From: an uncultured Alteromonadaceae bacterium | GTDB lineage: Bacteria > Pseudomonadota > Gammaproteobacteria > Enterobacterales > Alteromonadaceae | Assembly: GCA_913056495.1 (NCBI GenBank) | Contig: CAJXMO010000002.1 | Span: 239,347 to 303,346, forward strand | Length of the DNA: 64,000 bases | Direction of reading: 5' to 3' | Shown: positions 57,011-60,630 of the stretch, in pieces | Layout of the letters: every line of letters starts with the position of its first letter | How positions within the stretch are numbered: position 1 is the stretch's first letter | Position numbers and translations under genes: made by a program | The notes under the pieces: generated by a model | Seen by the model: only the letters and a program-made list of their open reading frames with translations | Databases searched by the model: none | What the model was told of the DNA's origin: nothing

Positions 57011-58000
57011 ATGAGTTTATTATTTTCAAACCGGGACAAAAAAGGGGCCACTCAGCGCAAACTGGGTTTTTTTCAAAAGGTTCGTAGTTTTTTTATCAGT
57101 CATATTCGTCAGTGGTTAAGTTCACTAGGCAGTATATGGCGGGATCCTATGCCATCTATTCTGACGATAGCCGTTTTAGGGGTGAGTTTAACTTTACCGG
57201 CTACCTTGTATGTGGTGGTTAAAAATGCTGAATCAGTAGAGCAAAGCTGGCAAAATGCAGCTGAAATTTCATTGTTTTTGCAGGATGAATTAACGAGTCA
57301 GCAATTAACAACTTTTGTTAAGCAGGTTGAGTTAAATCATAAAGTTGAGCAGATTCAGTTAATTAATAAGGCTGATGCCCTTGCTGAATTTGAACAATTA
57401 TCAGGTTTTGGTGATGCGCTTAATTTGCTTGATTCTAATCCTTTGCCCAACGTGCTTGTGGTGACACCGTCCAGCCAGTTTTCTTCTGCTAATGCTGCCA
57501 AAGCGCTGTTATCTGAACTTGAGCAAATGCGGGAAGTCGATTTTGGTAAACTGGATATTGAATGGTTACGCCGGTTGAATGCACTATTGAATATGGTTAA
57601 CAGTGCACTTAGCAGTTTGATTATTTTATTGTGTATTTCAGTCGTCCTTATTGTGGGTAATACGATACGACTGGCCATTGCTAACCGTAAAGATGAAATT
57701 GAGGTATTGAAGCTGGTTGGCGCAACAGATAGCTTTATTCAGCGGCCATTTTTATATACAGGCCTCTGGTATGGGTTTTTTGCCGGTATGCTGGCCTGGT
57801 TTAGTATTGAAATTTTGTTATGGTATTTGTCTGCCTCGATAGAGGTGATAACCGAGTTATATCACTCTGAATTTAGTTTGTCCGGACTCAGTGCCGGAGA
57901 AATGTTCTGGCTGCTGGCAATCAGCATGATGCTTGGCTGGCTAGGCTCTTTTATTGTCGTGCGTCAGCAAATTAAATTAATTGAGCCAGAGTTAGGCTAA
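57011..58000 (+). CDS. ftsX: Cell-division permease FtsX
   Basis: GNTIRL, EVLKLVGAT, RPFLY. Confidence 0.96.
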   Translation: MSLLFSNRDKKGATQRKLGFFQKVRSFFISHIRQWLSSLGSIWRDPMPSILTIAVLGVSLTLPATLYVVVKNAESVEQSWQNAAEISLFLQDELTSQQLTTFVKQVELNHKVEQIQLINKADALAEFEQLSGFGDALNLLDSNPLPNVLVVTPSSQFSSANAAKALLSELEQMREVDFGKLDIEWLRRLNALLNMVNSALSSLIILLCISVVLIVGNTIRLAIANRKDEIEVLKLVGATDSFIQRPFLYTGLWYGFFAGMLAWFSIEILLWYLSASIEVITELYHSEFSLSGLSAGEMFWLLAISMMLGWLGSFIVVRQQIKLIEPELG

Positions 58001-58183
58001 ATGTTAATTTTGTAGCCGGCTATTTGTTATGCAACCGGCTACCAAACCCTGTCTTAAAAGTCGAAACAATCTCTATTATTTATTCAAACAAAAAATCACC
58101 GTATTTTTTGTAAAATATAGAAAAAAAAGCTTTTCATTTTCCGAAAAAGTGATTTAATTCGCGCCAGACAAGCTGGCGTTCAA

Positions 58184-58371
58184 TGCTAAAATTCTTTTCG
58201 TATCAGAGCAGAGCGGTCGGGTAGGCGATTAATTTATTAATCGCTGTTTTATAACTTGAACTAAAATGTTTGTTTAAGTGTAACGCCGTCTGCTGAGCTG
58301 ATAAACCTGCAACTACTGTGAGTGTAGTTTCCCTTCCAAGTTTGGCAGACCCCGTCTATTAGGGGTGAAAA
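58184..58371 (+). promoter_or_regulatory. Extended -10 promoter and structured 5' leader of the decarboxylase
   Basis: TGcTAAAAT at 58184-58192; multi-stem leader; hairpin ACCCC/GGGGT covers the SD. Confidence 0.55.
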
Positions 58372-60630
58372 ATGAAGTTTCGTTTTCCTGTCATTATTAT
58401 TGATGAAGATTTCCGCTCTGAAAATATTTCAGGCTCAGGTATTCGTGATCTGGCTGATGCCATCGGGCAGCACGGAATGGAAGTAATTGGATTTACCAGT
58501 TATGGAGATTTAAGCGCATTTGCACAGCAATCCAGTCGCGCATCTTGCTTTATTTTATCAATTGATGATGAAGAGTTTGGTGAAGGTTTTGAAGCCGATA
58601 TCGAAAAAGCGGTTGCGCCTATTCGTCAGTTTATCAGCGAAGTTCGCAAGCGTAATGCCGATATTCCGGTATTTTTATATGGTGAAACCAAAACGTCACG
58701 CAATATTCCGAATGATGTATTACGTGAATTACATGGGTTTATTCATATGTTTGAAGATACGCCCGAATTTGTTGCGCGCCATATTATCCGTGAAGCAAAA
58801 AAATATATGGATGCACTGGCGCCTCCGTTTTTCAATGCACTGGTCCATTATGCTGAAGACAGTTCTTATTCATGGCATTGTCCGGGGCATTCAGGTGGCG
58901 TAGCCTTTTTAAAAAGCCCGGTTGGGCAAATGTTTCATCAGTTTTTTGGTGAAAATATGCTGCGTGCGGATGTCTGTAATGCCGTTGATGAACTCGGGCA
59001 ATTACTCGATCATACCGGACCTGTTGCCGCCAGTGAGCAAAATGCAGCGCGCATTTTTAATTGTGATCATTTATTTTTTGTGACCAATGGCACTTCTACC
59101 TCTAACAAAATTGTTTGGCATTCTACTGTGGCGGCCGGGGATATTGTGGTGGTGGATCGTAATTGCCATAAATCCATTTTGCATTCGATTATTATGACAG
59201 GTGCAATTCCGGTCTTTTTAATGCCGACCCGCAATAATTACGGCATTATCGGACCTATCCCTAAATCAGAATTCAGTCTTGAATCGATTGAGAAAAAAAT
59301 TGCGGCGAATCCGTTTGCGCGCAACGCTAAGTGTAAAAAACCGAGAATTTTAACCATTACTCAAAGCACTTATGATGGCGTGGTCTATAACGTTGAAATG
59401 ATCAAATCTATGCTCAATAATCAGGTTGATACACTGCATTTTGACGAAGCTTGGTTACCCCATGCGACGTTTCACGAGTTTTATAAAGATATGCATGCAA
59501 TTAGTAAAGGCGGTGAGCGTGCTGATGATGCTCTGGTATTTGCGACTCAGTCAACACATAAGTTATTAGCGGGTTTATCTCAGGCGTCACAAATTCTGGT
59601 GCAAAATGGTCAAAACCGGACGCTGGATACACATCGTTTTAATGAATCCTATTTAATGCATACATCGACCAGCCCTCAATACTCAATTATTGCATCCTGT
59701 GATGTTGCAGCCGCTATGATGGAAGGCCCAGGCGGCCGCGCTTTGGTTGAAGAATCGATTCTGGAAGCGATTGATTTTCGTCGAGCGATGCGAAAAGTGG
59801 ATGCCGAATTCGGTGAAAATGACTGGTGGTTTAAAGTTTGGGGACCGGATCAACTCGCTGAAGAGGGTATCGGAGAGCGGGATGACTGGGTAATACATTC
59901 ATCTGATGACTGGCATGGATTTGGCGAGATAGAATCCGGATTTAATATGCTGGATCCGATTAAAGCAACCATTATCACTCCGGGGCTGAATTTAAACGGT
60001 GATTTTGATGAGTTGGGTATTCCGGCTGCAGTCGTCAGTAAATATTTATCTGAGCATGGGATTATTATTGAAAAAACCGGACTGTATTCATTTTTTATTA
60101 TGTTTACCATTGGCATTACCAAAGGTCGCTGGAATTCTATGGTGACTGAGCTACAGCAATTTAAAGATGATTATGATCAAAACCTGGCTTTATGGCGGGT
60201 GATGCCGGAATTTGTTGGCAAATATCCTCAGTATGAGCGAGTTGGTTTGCGAGATTTATGTCAGCGAATTCATCAAATGTACAAGCAATATGATGTGGCT
60301 CGCATTACGACACAAATGTATTTATCAGAAATAGAAACCGCAATGATCCCATCTGATGCCTGGGCTAAAATGGCGCACCGGGAAGTTGAGCGGGTGTCTA
60401 TTGATGACATTGAAGGACGCATTACCGCTATGCTGGTAACGCCTTATCCTCCGGGTATCCCGCTGATGGTACCGGGAGAAAGATTCAATGAAACGATTAT
60501 TCAATACCTTAAATTTGCCCGTGATTTTAATACGGCGCTGCCCGGATTTGAAACCGATGTACACGGCTTAATTAAACTGACGCAGGATGGAAAAACTGGA
60601 TATTTTGTCGATGTTGTAAAAGAAGATTAA
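58372..60630 (+). CDS. Lysine/arginine/ornithine decarboxylase (LAOdc family)
   Basis: Wing domain; WHCPGHSGG, TNGTSTSNK, DEAW, QSTHK (PLP Lys), PYPPGIP. Confidence 0.93.
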   Translation: MKFRFPVIIIDEDFRSENISGSGIRDLADAIGQHGMEVIGFTSYGDLSAFAQQSSRASCFILSIDDEEFGEGFEADIEKAVAPIRQFISEVRKRNADIPVFLYGETKTSRNIPNDVLRELHGFIHMFEDTPEFVARHIIREAKKYMDALAPPFFNALVHYAEDSSYSWHCPGHSGGVAFLKSPVGQMFHQFFGENMLRADVCNAVDELGQLLDHTGPVAASEQNAARIFNCDHLFFVTNGTSTSNKIVWHSTVAAGDIVVVDRNCHKSILHSIIMTGAIPVFLMPTRNNYGIIGPIPKSEFSLESIEKKIAANPFARNAKCKKPRILTITQSTYDGVVYNVEMIKSMLNNQVDTLHFDEAWLPHATFHEFYKDMHAISKGGERADDALVFATQSTHKLLAGLSQASQILVQNGQNRTLDTHRFNESYLMHTSTSPQYSIIASCDVAAAMMEGPGGRALVEESILEAIDFRRAMRKVDAEFGENDWWFKVWGPDQLAEEGIGERDDWVIHSSDDWHGFGEIESGFNMLDPIKATIITPGLNLNGDFDELGIPAAVVSKYLSEHGIIIEKTGLYSFFIMFTIGITKGRWNSMVTELQQFKDDYDQNLALWRVMPEFVGKYPQYERVGLRDLCQRIHQMYKQYDVARITTQMYLSEIETAMIPSDAWAKMAHREVERVSIDDIEGRITAMLVTPYPPGIPLMVPGERFNETIIQYLKFARDFNTALPGFETDVHGLIKLTQDGKTGYFVDVVKED

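Follow-up and report, generated by a model that had tools for sequence, protein, structure and literature searches.

A genus-specific leader element with a conserved RNA domain upstream of an LdcA-type decarboxylase gene in Catenovulum

Orphan leader RNAs recur before polyamine and basic-amino-acid decarboxylase genes; odc1, the ldcC motif and a spermidine switch derived from SAM-I are examples. The LdcA subfamily occurs widely in Beta- and Gammaproteobacteria; what has been described of its control concerns the promoter, and no such leader element is described for it. The 371-nt gap between the end of ftsX (58000) and the ATG (58372) of an LdcA-type gene in an uncultured member of the Alteromonadaceae raises the question of whether this gene has a regulatory leader RNA and, if so, of what kind. 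An earlier note, made from the letters of the DNA, had proposed a structured leader and candidate riboswitch at this position, and we have followed this up in the 64,000-nt stretch of contig CAJXMO010000002.1 in which the gene lies (the window) and in related genomes.

The source DNA belongs to the genus Catenovulum, and the closest decarboxylase proteins are those of Catenovulum sp. 2E275, C. sediminis and C. maritimum. The genes ftsY, ftsE and ftsX precede the decarboxylase gene (58372-60630, plus strand), which encodes a 752-residue wing-domain PLP enzyme with the Pfam domains OKR_DC_1_N, OKR_DC_1 and OKR_DC_1_C that scores under all NCBIfam equivalog cut-offs. Its top solved relative is 6q6i_A (827 bits over the full length, with AdiA at 573, LdcI at 540 and ODC at 391), an entry that we take to be LdcA of P. 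aeruginosa and that its depositor calls 'biodegradative arginine decarboxylase'. On sequence comparison the product is a member of the LdcA subfamily of wing-domain AAT-fold decarboxylases with a putative substrate; LdcA itself is the founder of a lysine decarboxylase subfamily in Betaproteobacteria and Pseudomonadaceae (PMC6257575), and orthologues of the Catenovulum enzyme are 74-84% identical across Gamma- and Betaproteobacteria. Elsewhere in the genome speE and a SpeA-like arginine decarboxylase gene are divergent neighbours (G000:C6:148264-150206), and a second SpeA-like gene lies on contig C30. With two SpeA-like genes and speE present, the LdcA-type enzyme is not the sole diamine route, and the ADC route to putrescine is also available. 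Right after the ftsX stop codon there is an inverted repeat, GTAGCCGG-N15-CCGGCTAC (58014-58042), with no U-run behind it, which may be a 3' structure of ftsX; a metagenome relative skips 57997-58116, a segment that spans this repeat.

Of the nine genomes of the GTDB genus covered by the search, eight have the decarboxylase (76-94% identical) and seven a recognisable leader. These seven leader-bearing genomes, from Catenovulum and Gayadomonas, provide six distinct leader sequences, including those of the nearest relative (G001) and of Gayadomonas (G002). In C. maritimum (L004) the decarboxylase gene lies 42 nt behind another open reading frame, and no leader is found there. The gene upstream of the decarboxylase varies, being ftsX here, an FAA-hydrolase and CxxCxxCC-domain pair in SX2-type strains, and others elsewhere; the conserved DNA, including the block described below, nonetheless travels with the decarboxylase.

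The promoter and dyad of the decarboxylase gene

Conservation was expressed, segment by segment, as mean identity over the six distinct leaders. An A-tract resembling an UP element (58121-58128) and a -35-like TTTTCA (58131-58136) lie in a segment (58121-58139) with a mean identity of 0.85, in which 12 of 19 columns are invariant. The promoter spacer that follows (58140-58149, 10 nt) falls to 0.48, and identity rises again to 0.92 in an extended -10, TG-a-TTTAAT (58150-58158; 16 nt after TTTTCA, 8 of 9 columns invariant). Next comes a GC-rich discriminator, TCGCGCC, with a perfect dyad, CGCCAG-ACAAG-CTGGCG (58162-58178), in a segment (58159-58179) of mean identity 0.88 and 15 invariant columns of 22. 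Hexamers that are conserved on either side of a variable spacer, as here, mark 58131-58158 as a promoter. By its sequence this is a sigma-70-type promoter, with an UP-like A-tract, TTTTCA, a 16-nt spacer, an extended -10, a GC-rich discriminator and a predicted start site; the hexamers agree with the extended -10 pattern (0.85-0.92 identity vs 0.48 in the spacer), apart from a T at position 2 of the -10 hexamer where A is usual, and it is because of this T that the promoter scan passes over TTTAAT.

Transcription is predicted to start at about 58165 ± 2, and 58121-58371 would thus comprise the gene's own promoter and a leader of about 205 nt on a monocistronic mRNA. The earlier note had read TGCTAAAAT (58184-58192) as the extended -10 and the leader as ~170 nt long. 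The scan does report TGCTAAAAT, with a CAGACA -35, a 16-nt spacer and the hexamer TAAAAT behind an upstream TG, but this promoter-like match is peculiar to this genome: the word is not conserved even in a 94%-identical relative (which has TGCTGAATT), and it lies in a variable linker (58180-58204) with a mean identity of 0.34 and no invariant column; the conserved promoter is 35 nt further upstream, and the shorter leader length is not supported. Promoters of the rRNA type, in which an UP element is combined with a GC-rich discriminator, come with growth-rate and stringent control, and by analogy the build of the decarboxylase promoter suggests an added growth-rate or stringent control of transcription.

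The middle base of the loop is the only variation in the dyad among five leaders, and in G002 the register changes to CGCGC-N10-GCGCG. A start at ~58165 leaves the left arm of the dyad outside the transcript; the dyad would be either a DNA operator over the start site or, if the start lies further upstream, a 5' hairpin, and the register shift in Gayadomonas, which occurs in low-complexity sequence, would favour a hairpin over a dimer site. Gallionella-type orthologues have GACAAT-CCGCGCCA in common with the TTTAAT-TCGCGCCA of Catenovulum. The dyad 15-mer GCCAGACAAGCTGGC recurs at G000:C6:157470-157484 (about 1971-1985 of L141), after a 288-aa open reading frame, in a hairpin with A- and T-runs on its flanks that forms a bidirectional terminator, and this copy was judged to be due to chance. 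Two other readings of the promoter region were rejected by eye, a sigma-54 promoter for its wrong spacing and a CRP site since just the TG of the half-site is conserved.

A conserved RNA domain within the leader

Beyond the linker, the leaders have a near-invariant block, AGCAGAGCGGTCGGGTAGGC (58207-58226; AGCAGAGCGGUCGGGUAGGC), which comprises the 5' strand of a closing helix (P1), a junction and the first bases of a hairpin (P2). GCAGAGCGGT is identical in all seven leader-bearing genomes, and the block consensus AGCAGAGCGGTCRGG(G)TAGGC (58205-58227) has a mean identity of 0.79, the rest of the leader (58228-58371) having 0.21-0.24. The comparison places a conserved RNA domain between about +40 and +130; it is made up of the 5' strand AGCAGAGCGGUCRGGGUAGGC, a P1 3' strand at variable distance, P2, and optional hairpins. 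The block is present in a single copy per genome: CAGAGCGGTTAGG on contig C5 is not a second element but sits in a long open reading frame, which we take to be radA, and a 16-mer in G007 was likewise set aside, apparently lying within coding sequence. A search for a trans-acting RNA partner covered the genome and found that complements of the block do not exceed 12 nt, and a reading of GGTAG as an ops-like site for RfaH was dropped because the word is absent in G002.

In P1, AGCAGAGCGG (58207-58216) pairs with CCGTCTGCT (58286-58294), leaving G58213 bulged, and an outer extension joins TATCAG (58201-58206) to CTGATA (58298-58303); a base-by-base check bears out this closing stem as the earlier note had drawn it. 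GCAGAGCGG, which is invariant, has its complement downstream, and the helix that the two form closes the core in the MFE structure of six of six leaders, with core z values of -1.7 to -3.6 and P1 pairing probabilities of 0.43-0.99, and RNAalifold on a plain MAFFT alignment gives the P1 stem too, with a covariation term of +1.06. The partner strand lies 26-120 nt downstream, beyond sequence that cannot be aligned among the leaders, and takes the forms CCGUCUGC, CCUGCCUGC, CCGUACUCUGC, CCGUAGUCUGC and CUUUGCC: CCGUCUGC is found in this strain (at a distance of 79 nt) and in G001 (120 nt), CCUGCCUGC in G006 (64 nt, with a second, proximal CCGUCUG), CCGUA-CUCUGC in G007 (68 nt), CCGUAG-UCUGC in G005/G003 (48 nt) and CUUUGCC in G002 (26 nt). 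Indels that form a bulge or internal loop fall precisely opposite the bulged G, and these together with the unphased, varying spacing argue for an RNA helix over paired DNA sites. Covariation in the near-invariant helix is minimal, with only one pair changed on both sides, a basal A-U that is G-C in G002. Shifting the partner by 1-3 columns lowers the paired cells from 81% to 35-56% in alignment A3, which is fitted to the covariance model, contains one spurious row and mis-pairs G002, and was used for this register control alone. An alignment-free duplex test, in which the 10-mer was set against the true downstream sequence and against shuffles, is weaker, with p = 0.02-0.19 per species, and the Fisher combination over five lineages, ~0.003, is overstated because the lineages are related.

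P2 (58224-58245; GGCGAUUAA-UUUA-UUAAUCGCU, then GUUUUAU) has pairing probabilities of 0.84-1.0 and differs in sequence and length among the leaders with its pairs retained; compensatory changes affect 2-3 pairs (G-C to A-U and U-A to A-U relative to G005, and A-U to U-A relative to G001). For a putative aptamer fold, the observations amount to these pairs and to the near-invariant P1 in 6/6 leaders, and six sequences of one genus are too small a sample for covariation statistics. The domain has one to three helices, and the 'junction' takes part in pairing in G002, G006 and G007, so that the domain there looks like a long irregular hairpin.

For this strain, the MFE fold of 58195-58385 has an energy of -54.8 kcal/mol vs -42.6 ± 3.9 for 200 dinucleotide shuffles (z = -3.16, none of the 200 as good) and consists of exactly the helices named in the earlier note; the core (58203-58297) alone gives z = -3.4. 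The claim of a structured 5' leader is therefore upheld, the fold being stronger than chance (z -3.2), and the two enclosed hairpins (GCGATTAA/TTAATCGC, 58225-58244; ACTTGAAC/GTTTAAGT, 58254-58279) and the two further downstream (AACTAC/GTAGTT, 58311-58329; ACCCC/GGGGT, 58349-58366) are all present. An aquaculture metagenome contig that is ~96% identical differs by seven substitutions in 58195-58371, six of them at predicted unpaired positions, and this loop bias (34% of positions are unpaired; binomial p ~0.008, from a single contig of depth 4) independently supports the modelled fold of this strain. A second, more distant metagenome contig has indels within the hairpin that contains the Shine-Dalgarno sequence (SD).

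Several of these helices are specific to the lineage. P3 (ACUUGAAC/GUUUAAGU, 58254-58279) is much longer in G001 and absent in the other four leaders, so that the three-way junction proposed in the earlier note holds for this strain and G001, but the remainder have P1 and one hairpin. A tiny MFV reading frame does exist in the P3 loop (ATGTTTGTTTAA, 58266-58277), but it is not conserved among the leaders. The AACUAC/GUAGUU hairpin (58311-58329) is an insertion in this lineage, 14 nt long when set against the AACUACCCUUCC of G001, and its loop takes two metagenome variants, at 58318 and 58322. Over the AGGGG SD, which is 6 nt before the ATG, lie a second GCAGAC (58345-58350) and, overlapping it, an anti-SD, ACCCC (58349-58353), that pairs with GGGGU (58362-58366); the Gs of the SD are unpaired with a probability of 0.0. 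G001 retains GCAGAC and pairs its SD with homologous anti-SD sequence in another register (CCUUAUU with AAUAGGG), and it is the only other leader with this SD hairpin; in the other species a weak SD is open or is paired by unrelated sequence. Predicted sequestration of the SD by an upstream anti-SD is supported for this strain and its nearest relative. Homologous leaders conserve the promoter, the dyad, the 5' block, P1 and P2, but not P3, the AACUAC hairpin, the SD hairpin or the tiny reading frame, and the interpretation in the earlier note is partly supported, with a conserved core that is smaller than the three-way junction and lies further upstream.

Possible modes of action

One strand keeps 16-20 bases invariant although the rest of the leader is saturated with change, which suggests that the 5' strand is read sequence-specifically. 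The explanation that we favour, to which we give a little less than an even chance, is that of a genus-specific cis-regulatory leader RNA with a putative effector and, in this strain, a translational output. The domain would be a cis-acting element read sequence-specifically by some factor, which may be a protein, an RNA or a small molecule. In this strain, closure of P1 would leave the second GCAGAC free and let ACCCC pair with the SD, which would be the off state; with P1 open, the freed GUCUGC of the P1 3' strand would take GCAGAC, the SD hairpin would lose two of its five pairs and translation would rise. When the 5' block of this strain is blocked in silico, the GUCUGC:GCAGAC helix forms and the SD hairpin goes from five to three pairs, and in this model translation is probably gated via the SD hairpin. 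G001 appears to have the same switch arrangement, with the alternative helix beside the anti-SD as it is here; the other four leaders share no coupling to the ribosome binding site (RBS), and the same in silico block changes neither SD nor AUG accessibility in four of the six leaders. The output in these four may differ from translation initiation (stability or Rho-dependent termination, for example), or the domain may be no switch. That the proposed switch is seen just here and in the nearest relative, and that there are six distinct sequences from one genus, count against our explanation, as do the minimal covariation in P1, the modest p values of the duplex test and the missing A in the -10 hexamer, and the one-strand conservation could equally reflect a DNA-level site or a trans partner. 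The leader element is real, new and narrowly distributed, and the data are too thin for it to be labelled a riboswitch.

A metabolite- or ion-binding riboswitch would be a special case of the cis-regulatory leader RNA, with an aptamer built from P1, the junction and P2 (conceivable ligands are lysine, arginine, cadaverine and other polyamines) and with species-specific platforms. Its closing stem with conserved junction nucleotides, and its variable peripheral helices and downstream parts, are as in riboswitches, neither an upstream open reading frame (uORF) nor a tRNA-like feature offers another sensor, and polyamine and decarboxylase leaders are a known home of candidates (PMC10853860, PMC5737381, PMC8632094). 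However, the conserved bases are one-stranded, with no conserved 3' junction or loop to provide a pocket, the 'junction' is paired in three leaders, no expression platform common to the leaders was found, and the element is confined to one gene in one genus, with no copy found in 400 (BLAST) or 150 (covariance model) genomes of the family or before orthologues elsewhere. We regard the riboswitch as improbable, and the same applies to an undescribed class that senses a basic amino acid or diamine (lysine, arginine, cadaverine or putrescine) and controls an LdcA-type gene in Gammaproteobacteria. If the riboswitch reading were true, the leader would sense, as a natural RNA, a ligand for which no riboswitch of such architecture has been validated. 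Structured 5' UTRs that act as stabilisers are established, that of E. coli ompA for example, and the domain, which contributes some -14 to -17 kcal/mol, behaves in silico independently of the RBS and has apical parts that vary freely, could be a constitutive structural leader that protects the mRNA from 5'-end-dependent decay or fixes the level of translation and senses nothing; a stabiliser would not need 16-20 invariant one-strand bases amid saturated neighbours, though, and we think this unlikely but worth keeping in view.

Control could instead be exerted on the DNA, with the dyad and perhaps the 58207-58226 block as operators and the RNA fold incidental. The perfect 6-5-6 dyad reaches from about -4 to about +14 around the predicted start, a zone in which repressors act, and its left arm would be untranscribed; ldcA of P. 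aeruginosa is transcriptionally controlled by ArgR and growth phase (PMC6257575), and betaproteobacterial orthologues have a dyad-like TGCGAA-AA-TTCGCA at -10. This accords poorly with GCAGA(G)CGG and CCG..UCUGC lying 26-120 bp apart with no helical phasing and with indels that fit an RNA helix, and also with the covariation in P2 and the loop-biased substitutions; moreover, the dyad spacing goes from 5 to 10 in G002, and there is no further copy of either word that would hint at a regulon. Such control, with an incidental fold, seems to us rather unlikely. We consider it very improbable that the leader is an attenuator or the source of a small RNA, with P2 and its U-run (58224-58252) ending a transcript of ~85 nt and read-through being regulated. 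The scan does flag P2 as terminator-like, and a U-run follows it in three of the six leaders, here (GUUUUAU), in G001 (GUUUUUAU) and in G006 (GUUUUUUU), but none does in G005, G003, G007 or G002, the stem is AU-rich with a G between it and a mere four Us in this strain, no antiterminator, conserved or otherwise, was identified among the leaders, and the conserved P1 3' strand would fall past the terminator.

Other known kinds of leader were considered and rejected. Leader-peptide control of the speFL, odc1 or attenuation type would involve an upstream reading frame in fixed frame, and no uORF is common to the six leaders; the conserved block has frame-shifting indels of 1-2 nt and, in three leaders, no start codon. 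For a CsrA-bound leader, in which several GGA or ANGGA motifs including one over the SD would be expected, the GGA count is 0 here and 0-1 in four others. ARAGORN finds no tRNA-like match, the longest match to the 29 tRNAs detected in the genome is 10 nt, and Rfam gives no T-box match.

Distribution of the leader and comparison with known systems

At gathering thresholds no Rfam 15 family, the lysine riboswitch and the guanidine classes included, has a match anywhere in the window, and a search of 57950-58450 at E <= 10 yields two minus-strand chance matches, to U1A_PIE and enod40, that are far under threshold. A lysine riboswitch (L-box) would suit the likely substrate, but the leader is unmatched by it both at the gathering threshold and at E <= 10, and the Rfam check agrees with the statement in the earlier note that the lysine riboswitch does not match. 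The L-box is a five-helix junction of ~180 nt.

Outside the genus the orthologous genes have other neighbours: der in Alishewanella, Rheinheimera and Arsukibacterium, speE in Zhongshania and Spongiibacter, and dcd in many Betaproteobacteria. No similar leader was found before the orthologues behind der, speE or dcd. Neither BLAST against 400 genomes of the family nor the covariance model R1 in 150 of them found a copy of the leader beyond the genus; the leftover matches are weak and chance-like, and those inspected fall within or overlap reading frames. R1 also has no match in 81 orthologous loci of other genera. A strict-pattern scan of metagenome contigs gave a sole match, by chance, inside an ABC-transporter gene. 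Protein searches found no nearer kin of the most divergent carrier, Gayadomonas joobiniege.

The leader is not a member of the ldcC motif, the spermidine riboswitch or odc1, from which it differs in sequence, architecture and lineage. The ldcC RNA motif is an orphan candidate from 5' UTRs of basic-amino-acid or SAM decarboxylase genes in Firmicutes and Spirochaetes (Weinberg et al. 2017, PMC5737381); it resembles the Catenovulum element in being a bulged hairpin before decarboxylase genes with highly conserved nucleotides that do not covary, but it has another sequence and lineage, whereas the Catenovulum element is found in one gammaproteobacterial genus and has no Rfam match at E <= 10. The spermidine riboswitch of Firmicutes, an off switch, is a SAM-I variant found before polyamine genes including the lysine decarboxylase gene ldcC (Salvail et al. 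2023, PMC10853860), and its four-way SAM-I architecture and terminator platform have no counterpart in sequence or structure in the Catenovulum leader. In Alphaproteobacteria the odc1 motif (uORF-25-1) is a decarboxylase leader that hides its RBS in an extended stem (Brewer et al. 2021, PMC8632094); a pseudoknot and a conserved uORF of 11 codons with paired UUG starts are part of it, whereas in Catenovulum there is no conserved uORF, the start is AUG and the conserved domain is more than 75 nt from the RBS. Closest in enzyme is ldcA of P. aeruginosa, of the same subfamily, whose transcription depends on ArgR and growth phase (Carriel et al. 2018, PMC6257575). Regulation at the promoter fits with the conserved Catenovulum promoter and dyad, but no leader RNA has been described for ldcA, the lineage is another, and there is no regulator gene near the Catenovulum locus.

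At ~90 nt the leader domain could serve as a small, testable system for the tuning of cadaverine or polyamine synthesis after transcription initiation in a marine, agar-degrading genus, its value being limited by the narrow spread over one genus and six distinct sequences.

Upstream regions of other orthologues have features of their own. In another genus of the family (G023, locus L008) the segment 1300-1500 retains weak similarity to the promoter and linker of Catenovulum only (z 2.8), and a small hairpin, CAGAU-CCCGC-AUCUG, lies at the position expected for the core block; this region may represent the leader in a decayed state or in its ancestral form. The gap from der (engA) to the decarboxylase gene is less than 25 nt in Alishewanella, Arsukibacterium and Rheinheimera (L030, L031 and L034), and in Alkalimonas (L032 and L033) the 3' end of der seems to have been kept as decayed non-coding DNA upstream of the decarboxylase. 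Among the betaproteobacterial loci L040-L109, 34 of 70 have a conserved promoter-like word, (A/T)TCTGCGAnAAT(T/C)C, 50-130 nt before the ATG, often in the form of the dyad TGCGAA-AA-TTCGCA, and behind it a T-run and a GC-rich hairpin. Loci of the Janthinobacterium/Duganella type have a CCGCCCCU..AGGGGCGG hairpin with CUUGCUUUUUU directly before the SD, with the look of a terminator, and at L040, L050, L051 and L057 the SD, GGAGAC, is paired by GUCUCC. Betaproteobacterial LdcA-type genes may thus have uncatalogued leaders of their own.
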